This document shows, piece by piece, positions 2 to 21,000 of a DNA stretch of 54,990 bases (positions are counted from its first letter, which is position 1; each line of letters begins with the position of its first letter). The notes under the pieces are model-generated. The model did no database searches, had not been told where the DNA came from, and saw only the letters and a program-made list of their open reading frames with translations. The DNA is from a virus (taxonomy: Duplodnaviria; Caudoviricetes): the IMG/VR virus record IMGVR_UViG_3300049098_000031, positions 1-54,990 of that record; one strand, written 5' to 3'. Both the position numbers and the translations under genes were made by a program.

Positions 2-1168
2 ATCAACACCATGCTCGGCTCTGCTGGCATGGATGACATCGACACCATCGTCAGGAATCGCGAAAAGACAGAGGCTGCACTCGCCAACCTGACCAACGAG
101 TTCTCGGAGATGAAGCGCAAGATGGCGACCATGCACGTCTCCAAGGGTGGAAGCGTTGCCAAAGTCTCTGCAAGCGGAGAGCTTCCGAGCGGTGGTGCAA
201 CGTGGCGCAATGCCAACGAGGTACTGAAAGAGAAGGGCATCCGTGTGCCTGATTCTCGCAAGCACATGTTCCAGTTCGAGGTTCCGTTCTTCGAGTGGGA
301 TAGCGAGCACCGTGACGTACCGCAGCAGGATGAAGCGTACCGCTGGCGCTGGGACGTACTCGCCAAGCTGATGTGGGGTCTTGCCTTCGACAAAAAGCCG
401 TGGGTCTGGGGTCACACTGGCACTGGCAAGACCACCCTCGTTGAGCAGGTGTGCTCCATCCTGAACTGGCCGTTCGTACGGGTGAACTTCGACTCGGAGA
501 TCACGCGTATGGACTTGATCGGCAAGGACGGGCTGACCACGGATGAGCATGGCAACACGATCTCGTACTTCAAGGACGGCATCCTGCCGCAAGCGATGAG
601 CCAGCCGACGGTCATCTGCAACGACGAGCTGGACTTTGTCCGGCCTGACATTGCATACGTATACCAGCGTGCCTTGGAGGGCAATGGCCTGCTGCTCACA
701 GAGGATGCTGGTCGCCTGATCCGTCCGCATGAATACAACCGCATGGTAGCCACGGCCAACACGCAGGGTCAGGGCGATGAGTTCGGTCTGTATCAGGGCG
801 CAAGGGTGCAATCGCAAGCGTTCCTTGATCGCTTCCAGTGCTGGGTTGAGGTCGGATACCTGAACGCAACGGACGAGAAGAAACTGGTGCAAGCACGTGT
901 GCCTTCGCTGGCCGAGGACATGGTTGATCGGCTGATCAAGTATGTACGTGAGCATCGTGAAGCGTTCAAGCAGGCTGCGATTCTCAAGCCGCTGTCGCCA
1001 CGTGGTGTTATCTCGACTGCCGAGGCGATTGCGTTCTTTACTTCGCTGCATCCCAAGGCCAAGGAAGGTGAGGCCGTACGCATGGCCATCGAGGCCACTG
1101 TGCTTGGCTCGGTGACGCATGCTGATGCTGCCAAGATCAACGAGTTAGTCGATAGAACTTTTAACTAA
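2..1168 (+). CDS. cobS: CobS-like MoxR-family AAA+ ATPase (frame open at window edge, probably 5'-truncated)
   Basis: Walker A GHTGTGKT, Walker B ICNDELD, RVNFDSEITRMDLIG, ATANT, AFLDRF, LSPRG; paired with a VWA gene downstream. Confidence 0.9.
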   Translation: MNTMLGSAGMDDIDTIVRNREKTEAALANLTNEFSEMKRKMATMHVSKGGSVAKVSASGELPSGGATWRNANEVLKEKGIRVPDSRKHMFQFEVPFFEWDSEHRDVPQQDEAYRWRWDVLAKLMWGLAFDKKPWVWGHTGTGKTTLVEQVCSILNWPFVRVNFDSEITRMDLIGKDGLTTDEHGNTISYFKDGILPQAMSQPTVICNDELDFVRPDIAYVYQRALEGNGLLLTEDAGRLIRPHEYNRMVATANTQGQGDEFGLYQGARVQSQAFLDRFQCWVEVGYLNATDEKKLVQARVPSLAEDMVDRLIKYVREHREAFKQAAILKPLSPRGVISTAEAIAFFTSLHPKAKEGEAVRMAIEATVLGSVTHADAAKINELVDRTFN

Positions 1169-1175
1169 CTCGTTG
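1138..1175. repeat. 12-bp perfect inverted repeat spanning the CobS-like stop codon
   Basis: CAACGAGTTAGT (1138-1149) / ACTAACTCGTTG (1164-1175), 14-nt spacer. Confidence 0.75.
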
Positions 1176-1202
1176 CATCCGACTTAAACTTCATGCTAGG
1201 GT
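1173..1202 (+). promoter_or_regulatory. putative sigma70-type promoter for the HNH gene
   Basis: TTGCAT-N18-TAGGGT with TG one base upstream of the -10; overlaps hairpin GGGTGTCT/AGACACCC (1199-1219). Confidence 0.35.
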
Positions 1203-1232
1203 GTCTGCACTAGACACCCGATGGAGATCACC

Positions 1233-1841
1233 ATGAACCCACTTGATCTGGCCGGAAAGACATTCGGTCGCTGGACTGTGCTTGGCTTCGCCGAGCGCAG
1301 GAATCGTGCAACCTACTGGCATTGCCGGTGTGAGTGCGGCAAGCGTCGCAAGGTAAAGGGCGTGACCCTGACAAACGGTACGTCAACAAGCTGCGGATGC
1401 AGCAGACGCAAGCCAATCTCGCACGGCATGTCGAAGACGCCAACTTGGTACTCGTGGCTGGCGATGCGACGCCGCTGTTACGAGCCTAGCCACTCCGGCT
1501 ACAGCCAGTACGGCGGACGTGGCATCAAGGTCTGCGACCGTTGGCGTGACTCGTTCGAGAACTTCCTTACCGACATGGGCTATCGCCCTGATGGCATGAC
1601 GCTGGATCGCATCGATAACGATGGCGATTACACACCAACGAACTGCCGATGGGCTGATGCCAACACGCAAGCGCGCAACAGGAAGTACGTCAAGACAGTC
1701 ACGTGCAACGGTGAGTCGTTGACCAAGGCCGAGTGGGCCAGACGAACCGGGGTCACACAGGCGCTGATCTCTATGCGCATCAACAAACTGGGGTGGGACG
1801 TGTGCAAGGCATGCACCACCCCTCGAAGGAGTAAGCGATGA
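1233..1841 (+). CDS. phage HNH homing-endonuclease-like protein
   Basis: GKTFGRWTV..WHCRCECG, TSCGC, HGMSKTPTWYSW..MRRRC, YGGRGIKVCDRW, TLDRIDNDGDYTPTNCRWA; GGAG at 1223 favours ATG 1233. Confidence 0.85.
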   Translation: MNPLDLAGKTFGRWTVLGFAERRNRATYWHCRCECGKRRKVKGVTLTNGTSTSCGCSRRKPISHGMSKTPTWYSWLAMRRRCYEPSHSGYSQYGGRGIKVCDRWRDSFENFLTDMGYRPDGMTLDRIDNDGDYTPTNCRWADANTQARNRKYVKTVTCNGESLTKAEWARRTGVTQALISMRINKLGWDVCKACTTPRRSKR

Positions 1842-2524
1842 ACATCACTGAAGCAATGAAGAAACAAGAAGACCTGAACGACGAGCTTGCTGATCACGTT
1901 GTGTACAGCGAAGAACTTGGTGCGCATGTACTGCATCACCCGTTCGTTGTGCAGGTTCCGTACACGCCACAGCTCAATGCGCTGTGTAACCAATGGTTTG
2001 CTGGCAAGACCGAAGCGACCGAACGTGCGTTGAGGGAGGGCAAGTTCCATCACTACGTGTTCCTGCACGAACGACCGTACCGACTGTCTGCGTTCATACG
2101 TGTGATCCACGATGACCGCATGGAAGACGACGACTACTGGTCGTTGTTGCGTGACGTCTGGCTCGACGCTGAGTTCCCGTCTCGTAACCGTTCCTCGTGG
2201 CGCACGCTGTTCATGTCCGAAAGGCATGGCATGCGTCAATCAATCATGGATGCCGGTGAGTACCACACATGGCACAACCTGCCTGACAGGATACGTGTCT
2301 ATCGTGGCTGCGACATCGAGAAGGAAACATCGCAGGGCATATCGTGGACGCTTGATCCGACGATAGCGTTGTGGTTTGCCAACCGATTCGGTCGTAGCGG
2401 GCAGGTCATCTCGGGCGAGGTCGGCAGGGAAGCGATCCGTGCGGTACTCAATGGACGTGGCGAGTCGGAAGCGATCATCGTCACGGACTTCGACTGGGAG
2501 GCTGCGGTAAACCATGACGAATGA
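1838..2524 (+). CDS. putative ADP-ribosyltransferase-fold protein (R-S-E type)
   Basis: C-terminal motifs in order: RVYRG, GISWT...A..FA, GESE; ATGA overlap with the HNH stop. Confidence 0.55.
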   Translation: MNITEAMKKQEDLNDELADHVVYSEELGAHVLHHPFVVQVPYTPQLNALCNQWFAGKTEATERALREGKFHHYVFLHERPYRLSAFIRVIHDDRMEDDDYWSLLRDVWLDAEFPSRNRSSWRTLFMSERHGMRQSIMDAGEYHTWHNLPDRIRVYRGCDIEKETSQGISWTLDPTIALWFANRFGRSGQVISGEVGREAIRAVLNGRGESEAIIVTDFDWEAAVNHDE

Positions 2525-2690
2525 AATGCTCATCAACACGGCGACCGTGAAGCGGTTGCGCAAAGCGTACGATAAGGCGTACGCACAAGGACTCGAACGC
2601 ATGACGTTCGACAAGGTTGAGCTGGACATGGAGTACGCCATGTACCTGCTCGATTGGGCTGAAGACTACATCAAACAACACAAGAGGTAA
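2514..2690 (+). CDS. small hypothetical protein (58 aa, not in the ORF track)
   Basis: MTNEMLINTATVKRLRKAY...YAMYLLDWAEDYIKQHKR; GGAGG upstream; fills the gap between two genes. Confidence 0.7.
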   Translation: MTNEMLINTATVKRLRKAYDKAYAQGLERMTFDKVELDMEYAMYLLDWAEDYIKQHKR

Positions 2691-2695
2691 TCAAC

Positions 2696-4720
2696 ATGAA
2701 CAAACGACGTAACATCATCAGCACCGTGCCTGAGCATGGCATGAAGACCGAAGAGTTTGCGATGGCGCAAACATCTGCAAGCCGGGTGTTCGGACGTGAT
2801 CGGGATGCCGCTGTCATCTTCGAGGGCAATCAGGCCATGGTTCGGACGGACGGCACCATCGTCTATCCTGCGCTGGCTGGCGGACACCAGATGTCCAAGG
2901 ACGAGATACTGGTAGCGCGTGGCTTTGCCGACCACGAAACTGGGCACAAGCGCTACACGGATACGGGCGTTATGGAAGAGTTCAACAAGGAGTGCGAGTC
3001 ATCTGACAATGCGTTGCTGCGACAGGTTGCGTTCGCAGTGGATGACATTCGCATCGAGAAACTTGCGATCCGTGACTACTCCGGTGCGCAGACCAACCTC
3101 GAAGCGACCAACGATGCGATGCTTGGTGAGTTCGTTGAGTTCGCCAAGGAACATCCCGAAGAGGCGCGTGATCTTGACGTTGTCATGCCTGTCATGATGA
3201 CAGTCGAGGGTCGTCGGCGTATGGGGTATCGCTCCGAGCATGCCGATGATGCGCTGGCCGTACTGACAGACGAGCAGCGTGAGAAGATCAATGCGTACGT
3301 CGACATTGCCATGGGCGTGACCAGCCCTGATCCAGTTGGCGGCACACGTGAAGTGATCGATGCTGCCAAGCTGATCATCGACGAGAAGGAGAAGCAGGAG
3401 GAGCAGGATGACCAGCCTGAAGATGGAGAGGGGCTTAACCCTGAAGGCGGCGACGAGGGCATCCCTGTTGAAGGCGGCGATGACGAAGGCGGAGGCGGCA
3501 GTGGAGACGACGAGGAACGTGAGCAGTCCGATTCCGAAGGCAAGACCACTGGCGAACACAAGGAGTTTACTGGTGAGCTTGCGTCGCAGGGCAAGCCGCT
3601 CGATGCGGATGACCTGATGAGCAAGGCGATCAACAGCTCGTTCGAGAAGTACATCCAGCCCAACAGCAAGCACTATCGTCCGTACTCCACGCAATACGAC
3701 AGCTACTCCCGTGCCGATGACCTGATGGTTGGGATGATGACGCCGTACATGAAGTCTCGTGTCGAGTCGGGATCGGTGAGGCGTTACGAGAGGATCGTGA
3801 AGGACATGCACGGCAAAATCTCCACCATGGCACGCAAGCTGGAGCGTGCGTTGATGGCCAAGCAGCGTCGTGACTGGCAGACCAACTTGGAGTTCGGCAA
3901 CCTTGATCCTAAGCGTCTGGTGCAAGCTGCGCTTGGCAAGGACAACGTCTTCCGTATGCGTGACGACCGCAAGGAACTTGACACTGCCGTGTCGATGGTG
4001 ATCGACCTGTCTGGAAGCATGCACGGTCGTGTGTTTCTGGCCGAGCAGGTTGCGATAGCGTTGTCGCAGGTACTGGAGAAGGTCGGTGTTGCGTTCGAGG
4101 TTGTTGGCTTCAACAACATCTTCATCGCCTCGTACTCAACGGCTGATAGCAAAGAGTACTGCACTCCCGGACGATACGCTGATGCGGTGTTGCCTATCTC
4201 GTGGATGAAAGACCTGAAGAAGGTCGCCGAAAACCCGAGAACTAGTGGCAAGTTCTCCCGCTTTGAGCCGTTCCAGATGTACGAGTTCAAGTCGTACGAC
4301 CGCAAGCTGATGCAGGAACGGCATGGCATGGGCATGATTGCCAAGTGCGTTGGCGGTCACAACTCTGACGTCGAGGCTGTACGCATGGCGGCGACGCACC
4401 TGCGTCACAGGCCGGAGTCACGCAAGATCATGTTTGTCCTGTCCGATGGACTCCCCGAGGTCACGTGTACGCTGGGCGGTTCTTCTCACCAGCTCCAGCA
4501 CTTGCGCAACGAGATCGAGCGAATGGGTATGCACGGCATCGAGTGCGTTGGTCTTGGCATCCAGTCCGATGCCGTGTCTCGCTTCTATCCACGCTACGTG
4601 ATCGTCAACGATATCAATGATCTGCCGAAGGCATCGTTCGATCAGATGGCCAAGATGCTGGTCAATGACAGGTACAAGGTCGACAACTCAGACCTGATGT
4701 CCTCGACTGGGGCAAGGTGA
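2696..4720 (+). CDS. cobT: CobT-like protein: N-terminal HExxH domain, acidic linker, C-terminal VWA domain
   Basis: DHETGH, DDIRIE, D/E/G-rich linker, GNLDPKRL, MIDAS DLSGSM, RKIMFVLSDGLP, GLGI. Confidence 0.85.
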   Translation: MNKRRNIISTVPEHGMKTEEFAMAQTSASRVFGRDRDAAVIFEGNQAMVRTDGTIVYPALAGGHQMSKDEILVARGFADHETGHKRYTDTGVMEEFNKECESSDNALLRQVAFAVDDIRIEKLAIRDYSGAQTNLEATNDAMLGEFVEFAKEHPEEARDLDVVMPVMMTVEGRRRMGYRSEHADDALAVLTDEQREKINAYVDIAMGVTSPDPVGGTREVIDAAKLIIDEKEKQEEQDDQPEDGEGLNPEGGDEGIPVEGGDDEGGGGSGDDEEREQSDSEGKTTGEHKEFTGELASQGKPLDADDLMSKAINSSFEKYIQPNSKHYRPYSTQYDSYSRADDLMVGMMTPYMKSRVESGSVRRYERIVKDMHGKISTMARKLERALMAKQRRDWQTNLEFGNLDPKRLVQAALGKDNVFRMRDDRKELDTAVSMVIDLSGSMHGRVFLAEQVAIALSQVLEKVGVAFEVVGFNNIFIASYSTADSKEYCTPGRYADAVLPISWMKDLKKVAENPRTSGKFSRFEPFQMYEFKSYDRKLMQERHGMGMIAKCVGGHNSDVEAVRMAATHLRHRPESRKIMFVLSDGLPEVTCTLGGSSHQLQHLRNEIERMGMHGIECVGLGIQSDAVSRFYPRYVIVNDINDLPKASFDQMAKMLVNDRYKVDNSDLMSSTGAR

Positions 4721-4938
4721 TTGTCATGGCCAAGCGTAGACAACTGGTAACTGGGAGAATCGACCATGCTTGGCTTGGTTGGTTCCCGCAAGCTGGCTGG
4801 AACATGGAGTTCTGGCTGTCCGTAGCTAACGCCGTACGTAAACGCGGCATACGCAGAGGTGATCGCAATGGAGTTGTGCGCATCTGTAGAGAAATCTGGA
4901 ACATCCAACACGCAAACGAGGTAAGCAATCATGAGTGA
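4717..4938 (+). CDS. hypothetical protein (start may be 4726)
   Basis: Overlaps both neighbours in operon fashion; no motif. Confidence 0.5.
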   Translation: MIVMAKRRQLVTGRIDHAWLGWFPQAGWNMEFWLSVANAVRKRGIRRGDRNGVVRICREIWNIQHANEVSNHE

Positions 4939-5410
4939 CATGAAAAAGAAAATCGGCAAGCAGGGGCTTGATGGTCTGTTGAATCGCAAGGAACCTGAGC
5001 GTCCGCAGATCGGCAGCGGCCATCGCAGCAAGTTCAAGGACAACCCTAACTACGATCCGTACACAAATAGCTGGCGTGGTACTGACTCGTATCGCTCTGC
5101 GTACGACGGGCCACGTGGTATATCGAAGCGCTCCGGTGGCAACGTGTCCCCGGGCCGGGTGGCTGCGTACGGTGGCAACGTGAAGTTCTTCGAGGAGGAT
5201 GGGCTGGCCGTCATCCACGAGAGCGAGATACGCAGGCTCAGGCTTGAGCTGGGCGACCTGCTCATTAACGCACTGCGTACTCGTAACATCGGCCTTGGCA
5301 TCGGCGCTGAATCCGAAGTGCATGCCATGATCTCCACGCTGATCGAGACGGACGGACGTGTTGCCCACAAGGGCAAACTGCTCAAGGTCTGCATCGAGGA
5401 GGACGAGTGA
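4931..5410 (+). CDS. hypothetical protein
   Basis: GAGG upstream, operon-coupled. Confidence 0.7.
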   Translation: MSDMKKKIGKQGLDGLLNRKEPERPQIGSGHRSKFKDNPNYDPYTNSWRGTDSYRSAYDGPRGISKRSGGNVSPGRVAAYGGNVKFFEEDGLAVIHESEIRRLRLELGDLLINALRTRNIGLGIGAESEVHAMISTLIETDGRVAHKGKLLKVCIEEDE

Positions 5411-5790
5411 TGAACAAGGTGATATGCCCACTATGCGGTCACTATATTGAGCCAGCAAAAGAAGCACATGTTCACAGAAAGGTTGGTGGACATCGCTGGG
5501 CAGTACACTCTGATTGCTGGCAGGAGTCAGGTGGTTTTGAAGAACTGAAAACAGCGGTTGCAGATGCCGCATTGCAGGAGAGTGTGGTGATGGAAGAGAA
5601 GAAATTTTGCCCGTTCACAATGACACGGCCAGACGAACCTTGGCCTTGTTGCGAAAATATGTGCATGGCATGGGAGCCAGAAGAGACTTTGATCCGAAAG
5701 GAGTACGACCCGCAGTTGACACAGACTGTTGACCAAACGCTCCATTATGACGGCTACTGCAAGCTGATCGAAAAGCGGGAGGTTGAGTGA
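5407..5790 (+). CDS. Cys/His-rich hypothetical protein, probably Zn-binding
   Basis: CPLCGH..H..C and FCPF..CCENMCMAW..GYC. Confidence 0.7.
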   Translation: MMNKVICPLCGHYIEPAKEAHVHRKVGGHRWAVHSDCWQESGGFEELKTAVADAALQESVVMEEKKFCPFTMTRPDEPWPCCENMCMAWEPEETLIRKEYDPQLTQTVDQTLHYDGYCKLIEKREVE

Positions 5791-6653
5791 TGGACAGGAG
5801 TACGCAACTCAAACTGCTTGGCTCGGTGGAGCGGGTCAAGCATCCTGATTCGCCAACGCTATGCGATGTTTGCACACGGTACATCATTGACCGTGGTGAG
5901 CTTGGCGATACGGATGCGCTGTACATCGAGCGGCTGGAAAACGAGATCGGTGAATGGCCGATTGCATCGCTCGACAGGAAGACGGTCGACGTGTTGATTA
6001 CGCGTCATCGTCTGGACGTACGTGGCAACTCGAAGGCTGCGGTGAGGCGTGAGCTGACCACGTTACAGGCGGTGTTGAACTTCGCCTACGACGTGGGCAT
6101 TGCGGAGCATCCGACCAAGTTGCGCAAGCCGAACAGTGACAAGCCACGTGATGTGTGGCTCGATTCGGATGGCGTCGAGGAGTTCCTGCGCATGTGTGAT
6201 CAGGAGTTCAGGCCGTTTGCGACGGTGTTGTTCTTCACCGGCATGCGCCTGAGCGAAGCGATCAATGCGCGCTGGGATCATGTGCGTGGCAACGTCCTCA
6301 CGGTCGAGTCGAGGAAGGGTGGCGTCCACAAGACGCGCTCGATCCCGTTGGTGCAGCGTGTGCTTGACCTGATCGGCACACAGGGTACGGGTTGGTTGCT
6401 CAAGCGTAGCTGCGGATCGCAGTGGACGAAGCGCATGGTGTACCAGCACTGGAATCCCGTGCGTGACAGGATGGGCATGCCAGCGTTGACGCCGCACTGT
6501 GCACGTCACTCGTTCGCCAGTAACCTGATCATCCGTGGGGCTGACAGTCGCACGGTAGCGGAGTTGCTGGGGCACTCGTCCATGGACATGATGAAGCGGT
6601 ACACGCATCTGAACACCACGCACCTGACGGAGGCAGTGTCCAAGCTGGTGTAG
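5787..6653 (+). CDS. int: tyrosine recombinase / phage integrase
   Basis: TGMRLSE (R), HCARH (HxxR), LLGH, RYTH (catalytic Y). Confidence 0.93.
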   Translation: MMDRSTQLKLLGSVERVKHPDSPTLCDVCTRYIIDRGELGDTDALYIERLENEIGEWPIASLDRKTVDVLITRHRLDVRGNSKAAVRRELTTLQAVLNFAYDVGIAEHPTKLRKPNSDKPRDVWLDSDGVEEFLRMCDQEFRPFATVLFFTGMRLSEAINARWDHVRGNVLTVESRKGGVHKTRSIPLVQRVLDLIGTQGTGWLLKRSCGSQWTKRMVYQHWNPVRDRMGMPALTPHCARHSFASNLIIRGADSRTVAELLGHSSMDMMKRYTHLNTTHLTEAVSKLV

Positions 6654-6679
6654 CAAAGTTCAGACAGATGCGATATGAT
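6651..6679 (+). promoter_or_regulatory. putative sigma70-type promoter
   Basis: TAGCAA-N17-TATGAT starting at the integrase stop codon. Confidence 0.5.
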
Positions 6680-6684
6680 GCACC

Positions 6685-6758
6685 CACATGCTGATGTTGC
6701 GTTGTTCATGGCATGTGTGTGTTGGAAGGGCTGGCTCGAAAGGGTCGGCCCTTTTTTT
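6685..6758 (+). ncRNA. candidate ~73-nt small RNA
   Basis: Own promoter, 5' hairpin CACATGC(6685-6691)/GCATGTG(6711-6717) with a U/G-rich loop, then an intrinsic terminator; no plausible ORF. Confidence 0.45.
6726..6758 (+). terminator. Rho-independent terminator
   Basis: AAGGGCTGGCTC-GAAA-GGGTCGGCCCTT then T-run; G-U pairs fix it to the + strand. Confidence 0.9.
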
Positions 6759-6760
6759 GC

Positions 6761-6949
6761 CTAGCGTTTGCGCTGTTCCTTTTGGGGGCGTGTGTGAATT
6801 GCTTCCAACCTGCGCTTGCTGTTCTGGCGAGCGAACCTGTAGGCGTAGTCGAACGCCTCGTCCTTTTCCATTCCTTCCTTGATCAATCTCTTTACGTTCT
6901 TGCGTATGACTGTGGGCGACATGCCCGGGTCTAGTGTTGACTTGATCAC
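6761..6949 (-). CDS. small basic hypothetical protein
   Basis: GTG start overlaps the resolvase stop (GTGA); SPTVIRKNVKRLIKEG. Confidence 0.6.
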   Translation of the reverse strand: MIKSTLDPGMSPTVIRKNVKRLIKEGMEKDEAFDYAYRFARQNSKRRLEAIHTRPQKEQRKR

Positions 6950-7323
6950 TTCAGGTATCCCTGCGCGTACGCCCACTCCCTGTACATCTCCACGAAATGA
7001 TTCAACTCGATGACGACCATCGTCTCTTCCACCTTCACACCACTGCGCTTGTTGACCACGATGGGCACTTCGTCTGCGCCTGCGTTGCGTTTGGCCTGAC
7101 GGTGGGCCTCGTGAAAGTTCAGGCGCTCGACGCACTTGGCCTCGACTGACAGGCGTGGCGTACCGATCAGGTCGGCGCTGCCTTTTCCCTTGCGTGTCAT
7201 GGGGTCGCCCGTGTAGAGGGATCGCATTACAGCGACACCAAGTTTCTCGGTGAGGAACTCGGCAAGCTGGCGCTCGAAGCGTGCGCCTTTCTCTTTCATG
7301 TAGCGTTTGGATTTTGCTGGCAT
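6946..7323 (-). CDS. Holliday junction resolvase-like PD-(D/E)xK nuclease
   Basis: KGARFERQLA, ADL, VEAK motifs. Confidence 0.8.
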   Translation of the reverse strand: MPAKSKRYMKEKGARFERQLAEFLTEKLGVAVMRSLYTGDPMTRKGKGSADLIGTPRLSVEAKCVERLNFHEAHRQAKRNAGADEVPIVVNKRSGVKVEETMVVIELNHFVEMYREWAYAQGYLK

Positions 7324-7622
7324 CAGTCGTCTTCCTGCCAGTCCATCTCTTCCTTACACGGTGAGCAGATATACTTCCACTTCGGACGTGTACGTGTGCA
7401 GCCGCAGTTCATACACGGACGATTCCATGTCTTGACTGTGGAGCGTTGGGACTGGGCGTATTTGGCGGATTCAAAGTGGGCGATGTTGTGGCGTACGAGG
7501 ATGCGCTTGAGGGTGTCTACGCAGACGCCGAGTTCTTCAGCCATCTTGGTATACGACATCCTGTTCAGGTTCGCGCGTAACCAAGCGAGCTGTTGCTTTG
7601 TCGGCGTCGTGTAACGTGGCAT
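7323..7622 (-). CDS. HTH plus C4 zinc-finger protein, putative transcription regulator
   Basis: SYTKMAEELGVCVDTLKR HTH; CMNC...CSPC. Confidence 0.7.
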   Translation of the reverse strand: MPRYTTPTKQQLAWLRANLNRMSYTKMAEELGVCVDTLKRILVRHNIAHFESAKYAQSQRSTVKTWNRPCMNCGCTRTRPKWKYICSPCKEEMDWQEDD

Positions 7623-7646
7623 AAGCGCTAACACGTACGCTGGTGC

Positions 7647-7829
7647 CTATGCGGCAGGGTCTTCTTGCTTTACGTGGTCAGCCTGTACGGATTCAGCTTC
7701 GGCATTTTGCCTTGCGACCTGCATGTGTATCTTGTTGACGACAGGTGCCACTTGACCGTAAGGCCCTTGGTTGAGCATGCCGATAACGACTTGAAGTTCT
7801 TCTGCTGATAACGCGATGTTGTATTCCAT
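7647..7829 (-). CDS. small hypothetical protein
   Basis: 60 aa, operon position. Confidence 0.7.
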   Translation of the reverse strand: MEYNIALSAEELQVVIGMLNQGPYGQVAPVVNKIHMQVARQNAEAESVQADHVKQEDPAA

Positions 7830-7836
7830 GTTTCAT

Positions 7837-7858
7837 TCCGGTGAGTTGCCTCACCGGA
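7837..7858 (-). promoter_or_regulatory. 9-bp hairpin with GCAA tetraloop just upstream of a start codon
   Basis: minus strand TCCGGTGAG-GCAA-CTCACCGGA, 7 nt before ATG 7829, no U-tail. Confidence 0.55.
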
Positions 7859-7871
7859 TGATACCCAACAA

Positions 7872-8093
7872 TCAATCGCTTGTAAGCCTCGCTTGACGTT
7901 TTTTGTACGCCTCCGTGATTTCCTCAATCGCCTCGGCTTCGGGTGAGCCTTGCGCCACCTTGAATCCGACCAGCTTTGCATCCATCAAATCCTTCGCTGC
8001 GTCCAGTAGTGCGACGAACTCAGGCGGGAGTACCTTCCTGTTCACGTCGGGGTTGTCGGTCAGTCTCACGCCGACCATCTTGCGCTCTGTCAT
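7872..8093 (-). CDS. hypothetical protein (73 aa)
   Basis: AGGAG 6 nt before MTERKMVGV start. Confidence 0.7.
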   Translation of the reverse strand: MTERKMVGVRLTDNPDVNRKVLPPEFVALLDAAKDLMDAKLVGFKVAQGSPEAEAIEEITEAYKKRQARLTSD

Positions 8094-8196
8094 TGTCGTC
8101 TCCTGTGAGTGCCCAACGGCTCCTACCGCAGCAAGCAGACAACCGACGCCGCGCCTCCAAGAGCGGCTCGGTTTCTGCTGCAAGGGGCCGTCAGGC

Positions 8197-8248
8197 AAAA
8201 TTCCAAAGGAATCTATATACATATAGGGGGGAAAAACGCTGGAATTTT
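8197..8248. other. candidate replication origin / protein-binding element
   Basis: AAAATTCCA/TGGAATTTT inverted repeat around AT-rich CTATAT-AC-ATATAG, right after the primase-helicase stop. Confidence 0.35.
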
Positions 8249-8255
8249 CCGTTCC

Positions 8256-10559
8256 TCACGATTCATCCCCTTGATTTCCTTCGTCTTTTTCGTCATCAAC
8301 GGAGGAACGAGGATTTTCGTTTGCGTTCCTCCGTTCCGGCGCTTTTTTCAGGCGCAGAAAGCGCTGCCATCGACCGCCTTTGTCGCTGCGTTTACCCGAC
8401 ACGCGCTCCTTCTCGATCTCGATACAACCCTCGTCAACCAACAGGCGCACGGCCTCCTGCCACAACAACTGGCTCGCCTCTGTCTTCATGCGCTGTTGCA
8501 GGAATCGCAGGTTCAGTCTGCCATTCTTGATGTCATCACCGAACTCTGGATGGTTGGCGTTGCTTGCCATCAGGTGATTGGCTCGCTCGTAAACGTACAT
8601 GTAAATCTGATCCATGTCAGGGTGATGGCCAACCCAGTCATACACGCCAGTTTCCACCTTGTAGATGCGCTTTTTATCAACAGCCGATGTGATCTGATTG
8701 CGTACATTTTTCTCAGTCTTATCAAGAGCTTCCGCAATATCCTTCACGTTCGTTGCGCCATGGTCACGCAAGTAATCCACAACGGAACCAGCGGCTGTCT
8801 TGTCCCGCACCCTGATCTCCTCCTCCCTGAGCAGGTGCGTCACGTCTTCGAGCAGGCCGGTGATCTTGTTGCGGTGCAGCCAATGCGTACTGACGTCGCC
8901 GCCGAAGTTCTCCTTGCCCAAGCCGCCCATGAAGATGGCGTTGTTGACGGTCACGTCGAACCTGTCCGGGTCGATCTCAGCCAGCTTGGCCATGACGGTT
9001 TCAGCGATGTCATCGTTCGGACGCCAGATCGGGATGGCGAAACGCGCACTGTTGACCACGTTCGACGCGCCCCTGATCTTGCCCACAGCGCCCTGTGGCG
9101 TGGTCGGTGAGTGCATCCCCCCGTCTTCCTTGCGCAGGTGGTGCGTGAAGACGACAGCGGCCCCTGTGGCCACTGCGATGGACTGCGCCCACTTCATTGC
9201 CTTGTCCGCAGCGATGTTGTCCTCATCGAAGCGCCAGTCGAAGAAGGACTGCATCGGATCGATGACGAGCAGGGCCAAATCCTTGTAGCCGATGACGGTA
9301 TCCGGCAGGTCTTTCGTCAGGACTTCACGCCATGAGTGCGCCTCCGGCGTGAACTCCAGCGCATCGAACTTCTTCACGCCAAAACTCATCGTGTTCTCCA
9401 TCTCCGGCACGCTGATGATCGTCAGCCCCTCGCCCATAAAGACGCGCCTGTACGTAGGGTCGAGCGACATCAGGCGGCGTGAGATTTCGTGTGCGTCATC
9501 TTCGCCAAGGAACAGGATTGAGCGCCCACGCTTGCGCACACGATGGCCCATCCATTCAACCTCGTCATCCTCGCTGTACATCGACACCTTGACGGCCAAA
9601 TCCAGCAGCATGAACGTCTTGCCGACGCCACCGGGCGATGCCAGTACGCCGGGGAGTCCTGCCGGTATGATTTTGTCAACGAGATACTCACGCTCAGGCG
9701 GATCGATGTCGAAGTAGGTTGCCGTACTCAGGCTGATGAGCGCCTTGTTCTCAGCCATGGCGATCTCGGCATCGGAGCGCACGGCCTTGATCCTCTGCCC
9801 CCTGCTGTTGAACTCGTCTGGGTTGTTCGCCTTGTGCAGGTTCATGACCGACTTGGTAATCGTGATGATCTCGTCCTTCGTCAGCGGAGGATTGCAGCGT
9901 TTCTCGTTCTCTGCCCACACGAGACGCAGAATGTCCTTGCCCCACTTGTCATCGTGTTCATTGATGATGGCACCGGCAACGCGCGTCATGCCATCGTTGC
10001 GTTCGCCAGCGCCGAACTCGGCCTTGATACCTTCACGTTCTGTGTCCTCGAAGTCGACCTCTTCCTGCTTGCCGACGTGACCGTACACCCACGGGTGCAT
10101 CTCAGCGTGCATGTACGTCAGCGTGGTTCCGGGTATCAAGTCCCACTTGTAGTTCTTGCTCGGCGCCACCTTCACGTAGCCGCCGTCACCACGTACGTCG
10201 ACGCCTTCGATGCCCATCCAGTTGGTCGTGTTCTTGACCTCGTGGCCGGGATGGGAGAAGAAGATGTGATGCCCCCTTCTCGTACGTGCCTGTATTGGAG
10301 ACACAATGCCTTCGGACAGCATGCGCTCATACGCTTCTTCGTTGTCACAATCCACGACGACAAGGTTTGATACCTCGCCGGTGACGACACCGATCTCGGC
10401 CTCTGGCCAGTGGCTCCACCACTCTTCGATCATGCCCTCGTCTGCTGGTTCCTGCTGAAATCTCCGCCACTTGGCCAGTGGTCGCTTGCTTGTCGGGCTG
10501 ATCGGGATCACCGACAGGCCAATCTCGGCATACTGGAGTGCGTAGTCTTTGTTGCTCAT
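8256..10559 (-). CDS. primase-polymerase (Prim-Pol) + PriCT + RepA/AAA_25-type helicase + winged helix
   Basis: SKRPL..W, GVVTG..VVVDCD, RRGHH, DVRGDGGYV..APS; GERND; Walker A SPGGVGKT; LLVIDP; HHLRK, RGAS. Confidence 0.9.
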   Translation of the reverse strand: MSNKDYALQYAEIGLSVIPISPTSKRPLAKWRRFQQEPADEGMIEEWWSHWPEAEIGVVTGEVSNLVVVDCDNEEAYERMLSEGIVSPIQARTRRGHHIFFSHPGHEVKNTTNWMGIEGVDVRGDGGYVKVAPSKNYKWDLIPGTTLTYMHAEMHPWVYGHVGKQEEVDFEDTEREGIKAEFGAGERNDGMTRVAGAIINEHDDKWGKDILRLVWAENEKRCNPPLTKDEIITITKSVMNLHKANNPDEFNSRGQRIKAVRSDAEIAMAENKALISLSTATYFDIDPPEREYLVDKIIPAGLPGVLASPGGVGKTFMLLDLAVKVSMYSEDDEVEWMGHRVRKRGRSILFLGEDDAHEISRRLMSLDPTYRRVFMGEGLTIISVPEMENTMSFGVKKFDALEFTPEAHSWREVLTKDLPDTVIGYKDLALLVIDPMQSFFDWRFDEDNIAADKAMKWAQSIAVATGAAVVFTHHLRKEDGGMHSPTTPQGAVGKIRGASNVVNSARFAIPIWRPNDDIAETVMAKLAEIDPDRFDVTVNNAIFMGGLGKENFGGDVSTHWLHRNKITGLLEDVTHLLREEEIRVRDKTAAGSVVDYLRDHGATNVKDIAEALDKTEKNVRNQITSAVDKKRIYKVETGVYDWVGHHPDMDQIYMYVYERANHLMASNANHPEFGDDIKNGRLNLRFLQQRMKTEASQLLWQEAVRLLVDEGCIEIEKERVSGKRSDKGGRWQRFLRLKKAPERRNANENPRSSVDDEKDEGNQGDES

Positions 10560-10571
10560 GTGTGTGTTTCC

Positions 10572-14848: not shown

Positions 14849-15054
14849 ACTTGATCTTGACGCTTGGCCACCGCAGGGAACATCCGACGATTACCAAGGG
14901 CGCTAGATTTACGATTGCCGAAGGCGAGCCAGTAAACGAGGAATCGCTTGCCAAGGTACATAAGCAGATCGAACACGCCGTACGCCTGATGATGGCGGAG
15001 ATACAGGAGGAGGTTGCCCCAGAGGGCACGCCTCCCCCGATCACGTTCGATTAA
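14839..15054 (+). CDS. hypothetical protein
   Basis: GAGG upstream; last gene of + operon. Confidence 0.6.
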   Translation: MDVNLILTLGHRREHPTITKGARFTIAEGEPVNEESLAKVHKQIEHAVRLMMAEIQEEVAPEGTPPPITFD

Positions 15055-18000
15055 TCGAAGCCGCTATCGAATCCACCCTTGAATCCATCGGTGAAGGACT
15101 TACCCCATCCTCCGCCTTTGGATTTCTTCTTGGGTGCCTCTCCCGCCATCAGGTCGACCATCGACTCTCGTGCCGCCTTGACGCCTCCAACAAGCGGTAC
15201 GCGTCCGACCGCCTCACGAGCCGCCGCACGTTCCTTGGAGTTGCTATCGCTGGTTCCCCAGCCAAGCGTATCCAGCCCTGCCTCCTTCGCCCCGCCCAGT
15301 ATCTTCATGGCGGAGAACCCGGTGCCGACTGTCGGGCCAAGGATAGTCCCTGCTACCCTTGCTTCGCCGTACGCGCCGTTGTCTGCCTGAGCGACGACGT
15401 CGTGGATGACCTCGGCGAGGAAGCCGAAGCCACCTGCTGCACCAAGTCCCTCGAAGTACCAACCAAGGTAGCCGTCCCAGTCGCCATGCACTTCTTCGTC
15501 GTAGCCGATGGCTTTCATGAAGCTGCGCTCACGAAACGCTGCTGACCTGTCGTCTTCGCCACCACGCATCTGCACCACGTCCTTGACTCCCAGTGCGGCA
15601 GCGCCCATAGCTGGAGCCATGGTGAGCAGGTAGCCCGGTCGCTTCATGTAGCGCGGATCACCAGTACGGAAGAACTTCTTCACGTCCTTGATCATCACGT
15701 CCTTGACCAGCCTGCCCATCATGAGAGGGAACGACTTGAGTTGCCAGAACAGTGCGCCAATCGGCGTTTGATATACGATTGGAATGTCGTTCGGGTTCGG
15801 CGAGAAGATTGTGTCGTTGGCGAACTTGATCATGCCCTTCGATACTGCTACGTCTTCAGGGTTGAGTTCCTTGCCGGGGTTTTCGAGGTAGTCTTCCAGC
15901 CCGTACTTCTTCAGCATACGGTGTGCGTACTTGTATGCAGCCGGTTGGTTGGCCAAGGGTGCGCCATCAACCTTCGCCATCAACGCTTTACGTCGCTGCG
16001 TCTCAAACATACTCAGCGCAATCGAGCCGGAAATCCCACGCCACATGTCAGTCCACGGCGTCAGCATGGTCGCGTTGAAGAACGCGTTCTGCGCCTTGCC
16101 GATTTTTCCAGCAGCGTCTGCTGCGTACAGACCAATCATGCGACTGTGAAGCTGGTTCTCGATAGCGACACCAGTCTGCTTGATCATGTCCCTGAACTCA
16201 CCATCAGACGCGTACTTGGTGATCCCTCTGATCCAGTCCTGCATGCTGCCAGACCGAATGAGCGGCAGGGTTGTGTCAGGAATAGAGGTCAGCGTGGTAA
16301 ACGTCAACAGCGAGATGTTGTTGAACGCACGCATCGCACGGCTGGAGTGGATTGCCTTGTCGGATGACAGCTTGTTGACCTGCTTGCCTTGGATCGCGCG
16401 CATGGTTCCCTCGGCGTGCTTGAACTCGTCGTGGTGCATACGGGTGGGGTTGCCACCTTCGTCCAGCTCGAAGTCGCGCATACCGTTGACGATAGCATCG
16501 ACACGACGCTCGTAAGTCTTCGAGGTTCTATCCGGCGGCATCATCTCCATGAGCATCTGCCGTGCAGAAGCGGTGCCACCGTCGCCACGGACAGCGGCCA
16601 GTACCTTCTTGGCTGCCTCTTTCGCCTCGAACTCATTCGAGAATGGCATGTCGACGCGCAGTGAAATCTCGCCAGTCTCGTACGGTGAGTCGTCTCCAGC
16701 GCCAATGATCTGCCCCTTGATCTTCTTGGTAAAGACGCGGGGGCTACTCAGCAGGCGGGCAACGCCGTCCAGACCTTCCTGTCCAACCGTCATGTAATCA
16801 GCGTACGCGTGCATGTTAGTGCCGACACGCTTGGTCTGATGCAGGCGCTTGGTTGCGCCGTCCAGATACTTAACCATGATGACATCGAGGTTGTTCTGGA
16901 GATACGGTTCAAGCACGTCGTACATGCCCGGATGCTGATCGAGTCGGATGAGACGCTGGAAGTCGAGGTTGTCTGCGACCCCAACTGCGTGCGTAACTGG
17001 AGGTGGCACGTACAGGCCATCGTCGCCAACAATCTTGGCAGCCACATGCTCGGCCACCTCACGAGCAGATGCACGCGTACGATCCGGCTTCTCTGCCATG
17101 TAGTAACTTGTCAGCTTTTCGATGAAGTCATCGTGGTTGCCCTTGATTGCTTCAGAGTTCCAGACCTGCGGTACGTAGTCCTTGATGTTTCCGACCATCG
17201 CGCCTTCATTACTCAGTTCCTTGTGAACCTGATCGAACGTATCCCTGATTACGTTGTAGACCTGAAGTTCTTCGTTGCTCAACTGCTTGTAGTGACGTGA
17301 CATGCGACCACGACGCAGCGCTTGCATGATGCGGGTATGCGATTCTGGTTGCTTCTCCATGTCAGCCAGCGGATTCGAGCGTCCCATCCAGCGCTTCATG
17401 GCGTTCGGCGCATCCGGCAGGTTCATCAGCAAGCGGTTGATCGGCATGTAGCGTGAAGCAAACTCATGCTGCGTGGAGGGAGAGAAGTCTTCCACGTAGT
17501 CAGCCAGCCAGTTCATCCCCATCTTGCGCATGCGTGCGCTGTTCGCACCAAGCGTACGGTCGAGGATAGATGCGGCACGCGCATCTTCAAGCTCCCTCTC
17601 GCTCAGTGCGCGGCCCCGGAATATGGAACGAGCAGCGTTGACGAACCCTTTCGGTGTGCCGCTCTCCTCGAGGCTTTGCAGCAGTGCTGGTACGTCGTTC
17701 TCCAGCGACTCGCCGTTGATCATGCGCTTCGCAACGCTGGCGTTGACCGGCTCTTGCAACGGCTCGCTGTAGTAGAGGCGATTGTCAGTCTCGTCGAAGA
17801 ACTTTGCATCCTGATGCTTGACGCTGTACGCAGGCGAACGCGGCTTGCCGTCCTCCCCCATCGTCTCGATCAAGACCATCGTGCGGTGTGCCTTCTTGTA
17901 GCCGTCGACGGTGTTGTAGTGGATCGTATCGATAGAGTCGTAGCCTTGTTCACCAAGATACTTGGTCAGCATGTTACGGGCAGTCGTCGGCTCGATGCCT

Positions 18001-21000
18001 GCGTCCTCTATTGCTAACGACATGTGCTTGTACAGCATGTCGCCACGCAGGCCGGAGCCGCCAGATTCTTCGCCACTGAGCATCAACTTCATTGTGCCCA
18101 TGCTGTAATTGATTTTCGACTGGTCAGCGCCATTGTCCTTCATGACGTTGTAGACGTAGCGGAAGATGTTGCGGGCAATCGCATCATTCTCAAATGTGTA
18201 GTATTTGTTTGGGCGGGCATCGAAGGTATTCATCGCCCTGACGTACACGGGAATGACGCCGGGGTCGTACGGGAATCCCTTGTCGATCATGTCGGCAAGG
18301 ATGCCTTCTTCGTACTCTTGCAGCCCCTCAATGGAACGCTGAAGCGAAGCGATCTCGCTATCGAATTCACCAGCCATGCTCTCCGGGAAGTAGTCATCTC
18401 CCATCGATGCGGCGTAGAAGTCGTTGCTACCATCGCGCAGTGACTCAAGATCGCGCAGCTTGATTTGCGCTTCAGAAATCGACTGCGTGGTCATGGCCAT
18501 GTCTCCCGCCATCATCTCCATCTCCACGTAGAAGTCTGGATCGATGTTCTCCTTGCCACCAAGCGCCTCAGTCCACGCACGCATGTAGCCGCCGTACGTT
18601 GCCCTGCGGCCATACTTGGCATCGACAGTAAACGGGTCGACTGAAACGTAGATGCCAGCCCCGTAGTTGCCTGACTTGGATGCATCGAAGACGGCATCGT
18701 CTGCACGCGACCAAGTGATGTTGGGAGACGCATGGAAGAAAGGCGTCGGTTCGTCTTCGCCTGTGAACATGCGAATCTTTTCTTTCATGGTCGGCAGCGA
18801 AGATTCCCACGTACTCTGGAAGCGCCGCACGGCATGGCTCGGTAGCACAGTCGGAGGCTCAATACGTGATACCGACTTCTTCGGATCGACGAACATGTCG
18901 CCGTAGAGTGTCAGCCTGCGGAATGTCTGGCGGATGTCCTTGCGTCCGATCATGCCGTTCAGCAGGTATGCTGCGCCTTCAATGATGCGGTCGAGGATGC
19001 GGCTCAGTGTGCTACGCAGCTCGAGGTCTTCGATGCTGCCGTCAACACGGGCCTTGAATACGTCGCCCTTGGCTACGCGCTCGGCCAGATACTGCGACCA
19101 GTTTTCGACGTACCATTCCTCGGCCTGACGCTCCAGCTTCATGCTCTCCGGCATGTCTCCGTAGCTGCGCTTCGCCATGGTTTTCTTGATCGGGTCGTCT
19201 GCGTCGATGAACGCCTGCCTGATCATCGCCCGCTCTGTATCCGAGATCAGGTTGGTACGCATGAGAACGTGTCCAATCTCGTGCATCAGATCGAACGGAC
19301 TGCTTTCGCCCTTGTTCAGGCCAACCGACAGTCGACGCAGATCGGAACGCAGCATCTTGAACTCATCGCTGGTGAAGTCAGCCATGACGCCAGTTGCGTT
19401 CGGAGACATCTTGGTGCTGCGGGACAGCCTGTAGATGTCGTTCATCGACAACAGGTTGGCTTCGTCAGTTGCGCTACGCGACGTCTTGTTCATCAGGTTG
19501 AACATCCGGTACGCCAAGGTACGCGAAGTATCCTGCACCTCCGGGTTCCGGTGCGTGATGTATGTCAGCGCCTCACGGATCGTGAAGCGAGCATCATTTG
19601 GAATACCCTCTGTGATACCGGACGCTGTGTCTTTCAGCTCGGTTTGGACAGCAATCCGTACGCCTTGTTCTTGCGCAAGGATCGGGCCGATCTTCTCGCC
19701 GCCAGCTTCGCCACGCTTGATGCGAGCGTTATGGTTACGGCGCATGACCTCCCGAATGATGACGGTCGCTTCTTTTCGCTTGCCGCTTTCAAATGCTTCC
19801 GACAGCATCTCCTTGAGCTGCGGCGAACGCGCCTGAAAAACCTGCTTCTTGAATTCCTTCGACGTCTTCGGCACCGTCTCTTCAGGGGTGCCGGTCTTCA
19901 TCTTGTGAACGATCTCAGCCTCGATGGCCTCGACTTCCTTGGTGCCACGATGCTTCTCGTGCAGCTTCAGGAGGCTCTTCATCGAGCGTGTACGCAGGTC
20001 TGGGATTTCGGCACCACTGGACTTTAGCGCCTCCTTACGATTACCAGCCGCCCACTCCTGCACATCTTTCTCTGCCTTGATCTGCTTGCGCTTGCGCTTT
20101 GCTTTCGCCTTGTTGCGGAACTTGCGAGCGATAGCGTTATCAGGCTTGAGCTTTTGCGCACGGCGGCGCATCTCGTCAGGAATTGACAGGATGTCGAGAT
20201 CGTAAACAGCCTCGCCTTCGAGATCACGCAGTCCCTTGGTGTCCATCTCCAGAACATCTCTGACCATATCGTCGAGATGGCCAGTCGTACGCAGATCGTC
20301 AGCGAAGAAATCGGCGAGGTCGTCAGCGATTTCCTCAGTGCGTTCGAGGTTCATGATGGTCATCTCCTGATCACCATCTACTTCCTTCCATGCGTAATCG
20401 ATTCCTACCGTCTCGCCATCGCCATCGATGATCTCTTCGCGAGCGCGTATGTAGTCAGCCTCTCCTTCACCCTTGATGATCTTGCCGATGTCGTTGGCAA
20501 ACTTCTTGATCTGGTTCTTGTTCTTGCGGCTACCAATCGCACGAAAGTTTGCGATTGAGTGCAGCGCACCAACAAGTTCTTTGGCCCGCTCTACGTACGT
20601 GACCGGGTCTGACGCCATGTCGGCCTGCTCCAGCGCCCGGTGCAGGTCTTCAACCAGCATGTAGTTGTTGATGACGTACGGAGACGCGGGTGAGCGCAAC
20701 GTCGGAATCTCTGCTGGCTTCGACGCCTTGATCTTGGCTGCGATCTGCTTGTCAGGAATGATCTTGGCGAACAGGACTTCGAGGTCTGGATCGATGCGCG
20801 TACGGCTTGCGAAGCGGTCGAAGATCGCCTTCACGTAGCGGGTGACACGCTGCCACAACTTCGGATTTTCGAGGCCAACGTCGCCCTTCTGCGTCAGCCA
20901 CGCAACGAACTGGTTGGCAAAGAATTCTTGCGGAGAATCAAATTCGTTTGTGCTTGGCTTGACCATGCCGCGACCCTGCGTGATGCCGACCTCCTTCATA

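Follow-up and report, generated by a model that had tools for sequence, protein, structure and literature searches.

The 107-nt gap (positions 6654-6760) between two convergent operons of the phage genome analyzed here, the IMG/VR virus record IMGVR_UViG_3300049098_000031 (54,990 bp; in its full length referred to as the window), holds a conserved and structured RNA element at positions 6669-6760. A short linker within this element is exactly complementary to the translation start of the phage's own primase-helicase gene, both partners of this complementarity have changed in one lineage of related phages, and the element co-occurs with a CA-rich primase start. The best reading, in which we place about even confidence, is that a small RNA, or an RNA derived from a 3′-untranslated region (3′-UTR), blocks translation of the primase. 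The element would end the rightward cobS-to-integrase unit in one subgroup of CRP-810-type temperate phages, and the RNA would either be a transcript of about 60-75 nt from a weak or extended -10 promoter of its own, or form the 3′ end of the upstream mRNA, with or without processing. In its layout, a variable hairpin is followed by a short conserved linker, which contains CAUGUG(UG)n, and then by an intrinsic terminator. This linker would pair over the AUG of the mRNA for the primase-helicase, a product of the convergent leftward operon, so that binding of the 30S ribosomal subunit would be occluded and less of the replication initiator would be made. A brake on phage DNA replication would thereby be tied to expression of the integrase-side unit. 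That the RNA accumulates, pairs in vivo and has a repressive effect is what we infer from the sequence.

The candidate element begins directly past the stop codon of a 287-aa tyrosine integrase gene (5790-6653, plus strand; Pfam Phage_integrase, E 2.9e-23; PHROG 1), the last gene of the rightward operon. The convergent operon on the minus strand runs from the primase-helicase gene (8256-10559; Pfam domains Prim-Pol, PriCT_1 and AAA_25) via a RusA-like resolvase gene (6946-7323) to a small open reading frame (ORF) ending at 6761. RNA of positions 6680-6758 folds with an energy of -39 kcal/mol into hairpin 1 (6680-6722, plus strand) and an intrinsic terminator (6724-6758, plus strand), the latter with a 14-bp stem (6724-6755), a GAAA loop and a T7 run (6752-6758). 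This two-hairpin fold is far beyond chance (z = -5.49; none of 200 shuffles was as good) and bears out the first-pass annotation of this DNA, which had described a hairpin followed by a strong terminator. A terminator scan of the window did not list the terminator at 6724-6758, probably as its stem can take up part of the T run. The part of the linker referred to as the seed, CATGTGTGTGTT (6712-6723, plus strand), contains a CATGTG core. The 5′ arm of hairpin 1 (6685-6692, CCACATGC) resembles the primase start at 10557-10564 (CACACATG), so that the seed would be masked within the RNA by a mimic of its own target.

Syntenic contigs with cobS, cobT, integrase, RusA and primase genes were recovered by protein-guided scans. 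The best cultured match for the integrase was found in Roseobacter phage CRP-810 (30.5% identity; primase match 28.2%), and the window is, judged by its genes, a CRP-810-type marine phage. As described in the CRP-810 paper (PMC11288001), phages of this type are a globally distributed marine temperate phage family; they have cobS/cobT and integrate into tRNA-Thr, and 217 of 251 uncultivated virus genomes carry an integrase. Two relatives, L002 and L085, whose integrases are 42% and 48% identical to that of the window, exhibit a window-like layout directly past the integrase stop codon, with a TAnnnT box, then a hairpin whose sequence is unrelated, a linker TCATGTG..GGAAGGGG and finally a terminator with T8. 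The element of L002 folds with z = -6.76. The three sequences (window, L002, L085) served to build a covariance model, R1, which was searched against 95 sources (about 1.19 Mb). Beyond its training sequences it matched L089 (E 0.0097) and more weakly (E 0.27-0.89) L086, L088 and the duplicate of the latter, L007; a second search of six sources added L003 (E 0.095). R1 also matched L077, L065 and L070 elsewhere (E 0.01-0.64). The element is thus present in seven distinct sequences, in each of which it closes the rightward unit at its 3′ end and occupies the same syntenic place. The newly found elements are located 430-670 nt downstream of the integrase, past a tRNA fragment and a 58-aa plus-strand ORF, and immediately precede the convergent small ORF. 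Contig L087 stops short of the expected element position, and L090 passes into host DNA at a tRNA.

In the alignment of the seven sequences, which was fitted to the model and hence to something that favors pairing, 84.7% of the cells are paired, compared with 68.2% after shuffling and 42-61% in slid controls. Double-sided changes were observed in 19 of 26 pairs, a number reached by none of 500 shuffles. They affect 10 of the 12 pairs of helix 1 (hairpin 1), which varies in sequence among the relatives and retains its pairing (85.7% of cells paired), and nine of the 14 pairs of helix 2 (the terminator). The CATGTG core of the linker is invariant in all seven elements although the hairpin sequences vary. 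By these comparisons, the hairpin and terminator past the integrase constitute a genuine RNA element that is conserved in a group of marine phages. The earlier suggestion of a discrete, structured RNA with a terminator at its end and an anti-start-codon sequence holds in that such an element is conserved in seven sequences. Two possible small genes at the same place were rejected. The minus-strand ORF comprises 67 aa in the window, whereas L002 and L085 have only 3 and 15 aa, respectively, and as its length is not kept, no conserved protein is encoded there; a plus-strand micro-ORF (starting MRYD) is common to the window and L085 only and lacks a Shine-Dalgarno (SD) sequence.

When viral contigs were scanned for exact patterns of the terminator and of hairpin 1, no match was obtained, and a final viral scan with the integrase alignment did not reveal any further element-bearing contig. 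No match to positions 5787-7400 was found by nucleotide search of the phage collection, and the 124-aa ORF and cobT recovered no relatives as single-protein scan queries. Integrase scans of bacterial genomes yielded nothing above 29% identity except fragments of fewer than 100 residues (up to 50%), and no prophage of the window's subgroup was among their results. A scan of genome contigs with the element motif gave a single match, in Xenorhabdus khoisanae, which by eye has neither hairpin 1 nor a phage context and was judged to be due to chance.

The seed is the exact 12-nt complement of AACACACACATG (10557-10568, minus strand), which comprises the ATG of the primase gene (10559-10557) and the spacer following its SD sequence. 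The element and the primase start are 3.8 kb apart, and the primase mRNA is made from the other strand. Only two exact copies of the primase-start 12-mer exist in the window, both on the minus strand of the DNA. L002 was examined after the primase had been chosen from the window; its linker GTCTTCATGTGG is the exact complement, again over 12 nt, of CCACATGAAGAC at its own primase ATG, and this 12-mer likewise has only two copies in the 29-kb record. The duplexes of the window and L002 have the CACATG core in common, whereas the remaining 6 nt have changed on both partners. Relative to the primase start, the duplex extends from -9 to +3 in the window and from -4 to +8 in L002.

Uninterrupted complementarity between the element and the primase start of the same phage extends over at most 12 nt in the window, L002 and L089, 10 nt in L088 and 7 nt in L003. 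In gene-specific dinucleotide shuffles, which cover all of these but the 7 nt of L003, the observed length was reached by three (window), none (L002), none (L089) and one (L088) of 5000. The primase start also ranked first among 59 start regions in the window (taken from a crude ORF caller, with the first 7 kb corrected by hand), among 39 in G001, i.e., L002, the closest syntenic relative (both for match length and for energy), among 24 in L089 and among 18 in L088; this was not so in L003. Cognate specificity is seen for L002, whose RNA matches its own start over 12 nt (-22.2 kcal/mol) and the others over 7-8 nt, whereas the other RNAs match the L002 start over 6-7 nt and the starts within their own group over 7-12 nt, with the minimum at L003's own start. 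The primase starts of all five relatives without a convincing element, CRP-810 and G003-G006, exhibit no CA motif. R1 had no match in G002-G006 at E ≤ 1, and its best match in CRP-810, obtained with filters off, reached E 0.065 (12.6 bits). As far as these comparisons tell, the conserved, co-varying partner of the linker is the primase start region and not specifically cobT. In G001 (oriented as L002), the start regions of the genes beginning at 618, 2208 and 5351 contain CACATGAA, with seed matches of 9, 10 and 8 nt, and an RNA of the L002 type could thus have several targets.

The element could instead be a plain intrinsic terminator or structured 3′-UTR, which would insulate the convergent operons from each other, stabilize mRNA and have no role in trans. 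The match to the primase would then be a coincidence of a UG-rich linker and a CA-rich start. This is the main rival explanation, and we consider it rather unlikely. It fits with the element always being found at the convergence point of both operons, and also with CA-rich leaders being said to favor translation. Two further points in its favor, an unproven own promoter and marginal energy statistics, belong to a set of observations which weigh against a repressor of primase translation and which are brought together here.

Concerning the promoter, the first-pass annotation had proposed TAGCAA and TATGAT separated by 17 nt. These sequences are present with this spacer, TAGCAA at 6651-6656 (its TAG doubling as the integrase stop codon) and TATGAT at 6674-6679 (plus strand). 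A TAnnnT box stands at the aligned position in seven of seven elements, and in four of them it is directly preceded by TGn, as read from the alignment. An independent promoter is nevertheless unsupported. The -35 candidate agrees with TTGACA at three of six positions only, which would make a weak promoter, and a promoter scan of positions 5500-8500 did not list the TATGAT site and returned one promoter-like site where 1.0 were expected. In relatives of the tRNA type, the -10 box and the stop codon of the ORF upstream overlap, and the TATGAT of the window may be a remnant of the 3′ end of that ORF. A search of sequencing runs for the window found three DNA runs, all consisting of contigs, and no RNA run on record.

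Concerning the pairing, most of the window's seed is located within the 3′ arm of hairpin 1, and opening it would cost about 8.5 kcal/mol. Interaction energies were calculated with a home-made, IntaRNA-like score, which combines the duplex energy of 24-nt windows with the opening energies of both RNAs; it replaced plain RNAduplex on the whole 73 nt, which had produced long, loopy hybrids dominated by the terminator. When 219 shuffles of the pre-terminator part were each scored against the 59 starts, 11.4% of them reached the best accessibility-corrected energy of the primase in the window. In the gene-specific energy test, 19, 9, 9 and 21 of 250 shuffles were as good as the primase pairing of the window, L002, L088 and L003, respectively. 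These marginal values arise partly because UG-rich shuffles still pair with a CA-rich target. The exact match of L003 is limited to 7 nt owing to a 2-nt insertion in the start region. Moreover, there are only two independent sequence states, the CA-type (four genomes) and L002, and the co-occurrence of element and CA motif is confounded by phylogeny. What a plain terminator leaves unexplained, on the other hand, is an invariant linker between varying stems, the different and non-repetitive 12-nt match of L002 to the orthologous start, which none of the 5000 shuffles reaches, and the missing CA motif in five of five element-free relatives.

In the first-pass annotation, cobT was regarded as the main target of a trans-acting RNA, whose GUUCAU core would shut off the HNH endonuclease gene and the genes at 1838 and 5410 as well, possibly as an antitoxin to an ADP-ribosyltransferase (ART). 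The complementarity to cobT on which this model was built is exact. Positions 6702-6710 pair with 2695-2703 (9 bp), and after a bulge at 2704-2707 positions 6692-6701 pair with 2708-2717 (10 bp, one G-U), the plus-strand segment 6692-6710 thereby facing the start region of the cobT-like gene (2695-2717, plus strand). In the accessibility-corrected ranking of the 59 starts, cobT comes second (-13.7, and -13.4 in the calculation with the shuffles) after the primase (-14.3 and -13.8, respectively), and its start taken alone was matched by just two of 250 shuffles, with the gene having been chosen after all 59 had been viewed. Once the 59 starts are counted, however, cobT does no better than shuffled controls in this genome, an outcome which the first-pass annotation had named as refuting, as 15.1% of the 219 shuffles reach its score against some start and 34.7% are as good in hybrid energy alone. 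An exact match of at least 9 nt to any of the 59 starts was also found for 372 of 1000 dinucleotide shuffles and for 293 of 872 random genomic 79-mers (the other 128 of 1000 draws were dropped for overlapping a start region or the candidate).

The relatives do not keep the cobT pairing either. The segment of hairpin 1 which pairs with cobT has no counterpart in them, and in L002 the cobT start is outside the 10 best of 39 start regions, of which the primase is the first. The gene-specific energy test returned no interaction for the cobT start in L002 or L088; the interaction in L003 is weak, and 22 of 250 shuffles equal it. Only an 8-nt complement of their own seed (ACACATGA) is found at the cobT starts of L088 and L003, which counts for the model. 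The GUUCAU matches do exist, with 8 nt at the genes at 1233 and 5410 and 7 nt at 1838, but matches of this length are at chance level. The gene at 1838 has no Pfam hit at E ≤ 0.01, it matches only PHROG 4776, and nothing below E 0.5 was found among the PDB sequences; as the ART label is hence unsupported, the idea of an RNA antitoxin has no footing. With the primase outranking cobT and the cobT pairing not being conserved, it is improbable that cobT is the main target. Its start region is a possible secondary target or a chance match, and cobT could be a secondary, lineage-specific target of an RNA directed at the primase.

A hairpin and terminator downstream of an integrase gene also call to mind sib/tI of phage lambda. 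Lambda sib acts in cis through RNase III and has no conserved seed complementary to another gene. An analogous retroregulator, in which processing of the hairpin in read-through transcripts would destabilize the integrase mRNA, would depend on where the attachment site (attP) lies, since integration would part an element beyond attP from the integrase gene. Of 84 loci, 35 had an integrase match and were scanned for tRNAs. A whole tRNA-Thr(GGT) was identified in 10 of these 35, nearly always directly past the integrase, and other loci carry tRNA fragments at this place. L090 represents a prophage-host junction (L090 3268-3605 and beyond), in which similarity to phage L003 stops inside a complete tRNA-Ser(GCT) (3516-3605, minus strand; next to it, in our own reading, a CsrA-like ORF, also on the minus strand). 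This indicates that phages of the L003 type integrate into tRNA-Ser and not into the tRNA-Thr reported for CRP-810. Together, the tRNAs or tRNA fragments and the L090 junction mark the position past the integrase as attP in this family. In the relatives, the integrase is followed by attP (tRNA fragment), then by a small ORF and then by the element; this order, like the junction itself, fits a retroregulator of the sib type, with the element on the far side of attP.

This resemblance to lambda is found in the relatives and not in the window. A comparison of window positions 6654-6760 with L089 5837-6290 revealed that the tRNA fragment (attP) and the 58-aa ORF, which stand between integrase and element in the tRNA-type relatives, are missing from the window, and the same applies to L002 and L085. 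There is consequently no attP between integrase and element in the window's clade, and the scan of the whole window detected no tRNA; this phage may integrate elsewhere or not at all. In L089, moreover, the 58-aa ORF between attP and element has its own SD sequence. As a cis-acting retroregulator would also leave the conserved single-stranded seed and its complementarity to the primase unexplained, we hold this explanation to have a low probability. The possibility that the element itself is attP, a serious rival in view of the attP position in the family, was rejected, as in the relatives a separate tRNA-type attP stands between the integrase and the element. Directly beyond the tRNA fragment of L089, two direct copies of a motif of about 30 nt (CTAAGGTAGTGTTG.AAGGTGTCTCAA) are found at 6006-6075, and AGGTGTC-like words recur near attP in L003, L004 and L086. 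Going by their sequence and position, these repeats and words are candidate binding sites of a recombinase or regulator.

The two 12-mers of the window also form a direct repeat in the DNA, and this too weighs against an RNA acting on the primase start, as the repeat might serve as the binding site of a phage protein (for instance, a repressor or the replication initiator), or the hairpins might be a recombination site. Both copies are on the same DNA strand in the window and in the L002 phage, and the window lacks an attP of the tRNA type; both points count in favor of a DNA-level element. The copies are, however, only two, without any iteron-like cluster even if two mismatches are allowed, and one of them lies where just 12 nt separate a stop codon from the primase ATG. 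The covariation of the stems argues for selection on pairing, and the element is separate from attP in the relatives. The exact 22-mer of the terminator is absent from a collection of genomes of 185,579 species, from which no candidate for a bacterial attachment site (attB) arose; this is weak evidence in the same direction. A function at the DNA level is therefore very improbable.

A repressor of primase translation would most likely belong to a known kind of regulator, the base-pairing RNAs of phages, and be functionally nearest to c4 of phage P1 and the RNAs controlling plasmid rep genes. The c4 antisense RNA of P1 and P7 (immI) is located upstream of its target in the same operon, is cut out by RNase P and controls an antirepressor. 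Like c4, the element would be a short structured phage RNA which masks the ribosome-binding region of a gene of the same phage, not encoded opposite to it, through short complementary stretches; unlike c4, it ends a different, convergent operon, its target is a primase-helicase, and there is no similarity in sequence or model. CopA, which acts on CopT of plasmid R1, and the ctRNAs are encoded opposite their targets, are fully complementary to them and block rep translation. The element would resemble them in limiting the synthesis of a replication initiator by pairing at or near the translation start. It differs from them in that it is 3.8 kb away from its target, on which it has only 10-12 complementary nt, and is not encoded on the opposite strand of it. 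With bacterial sRNAs such as CpxQ, DapZ and SroC, which derive from 3′-UTRs and share the terminator of the mRNA, the element has in common the location at the 3′ end of an operon and a conserved single-stranded seed upstream of a shared terminator with variable flanking stems, but it is phage-encoded and targets a phage gene. Two features of a trans-acting small RNA (sRNA) are found here, a Rho-independent terminator at the 3′ end and a conserved seed complementary to the orthologous target in the five genomes which hold both; of the hybrid, the length of the exact match stands out from shuffled controls and the energy does not.

The Rfam 15 scan of the whole window returned no match at gathering thresholds. 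Among 11 sub-threshold matches, of which Xoo2 was the best (17.8 bits, gathering threshold 45), there was neither c4 nor any other phage RNA family, and with 17.6 bits, compared with a gathering threshold of 50, the element is not a member of ctRNA_p42d. None of the described families tested includes it. The window resembles the CRP-810-type family in cobS/cobT, the integrase and conserved synteny, but the element is absent from CRP-810 itself, for which a tRNA-Thr attP is described (PMC11288001). The word sRNA does not occur in the main text of that paper, and literature searches found no RNA regulator for CRP-810-type phages and no RNA acting on the start of a phage primase. If true, primase repression by the element would provide a simple link between the integrase-side operon and the control of phage replication, and the small set of phage sRNAs acting on genes of their own phage would grow by a new RNA family. 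As the seed-target pair differs among lineages, compensatory tests would be straightforward.

It is conceivable, but unlikely, that the role of the element is wider than this. It would then be a multi-seed anti-start-codon RNA, made with the integrase-side unit as a brake on replication and early genes, which silences the primase-helicase in every member of the group and cobT in some lineages and is rewired by the state of integration. cobT would be silenced via a second, lineage-specific seed (6692-6710) in the window and via the common seed in L088 and L003. In the relatives which integrate into tRNA genes, the integrase and the element would come to lie at opposite ends of the prophage, and the switch would thereby be rewired.

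Two DNA sequencing runs from marine sediment contain the window nearly unchanged. A wetland metagenome (run X3) includes contigs of a relative that is about 85-95% identical to window positions 1000-8000, from which it differs by small indels and by a 219-nt replacement at 7637-7857. Across positions 6476-6835, which include the element, identity is about 90%, with 20 differences and three gaps.

The plus-strand genes at 11-6653 form a tight rightward operon, which encodes a CobS-like AAA ATPase, an HNH endonuclease, a PHROG 4776 protein (function unknown), a CobT-like protein, three small ORFs and the tyrosine integrase. The HNH gene (PHROG 374) and the PHROG 4776 gene, at 1233-2524, sit between cobS and cobT. 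Neither of them has a tblastn match in L002-L004 at E ≤ 1e-3, and together they look like a phage-specific insertion, possibly a homing endonuclease cassette. Further downstream, positions 15051-23651 of the minus strand are taken up by one single ORF of 2866 aa.

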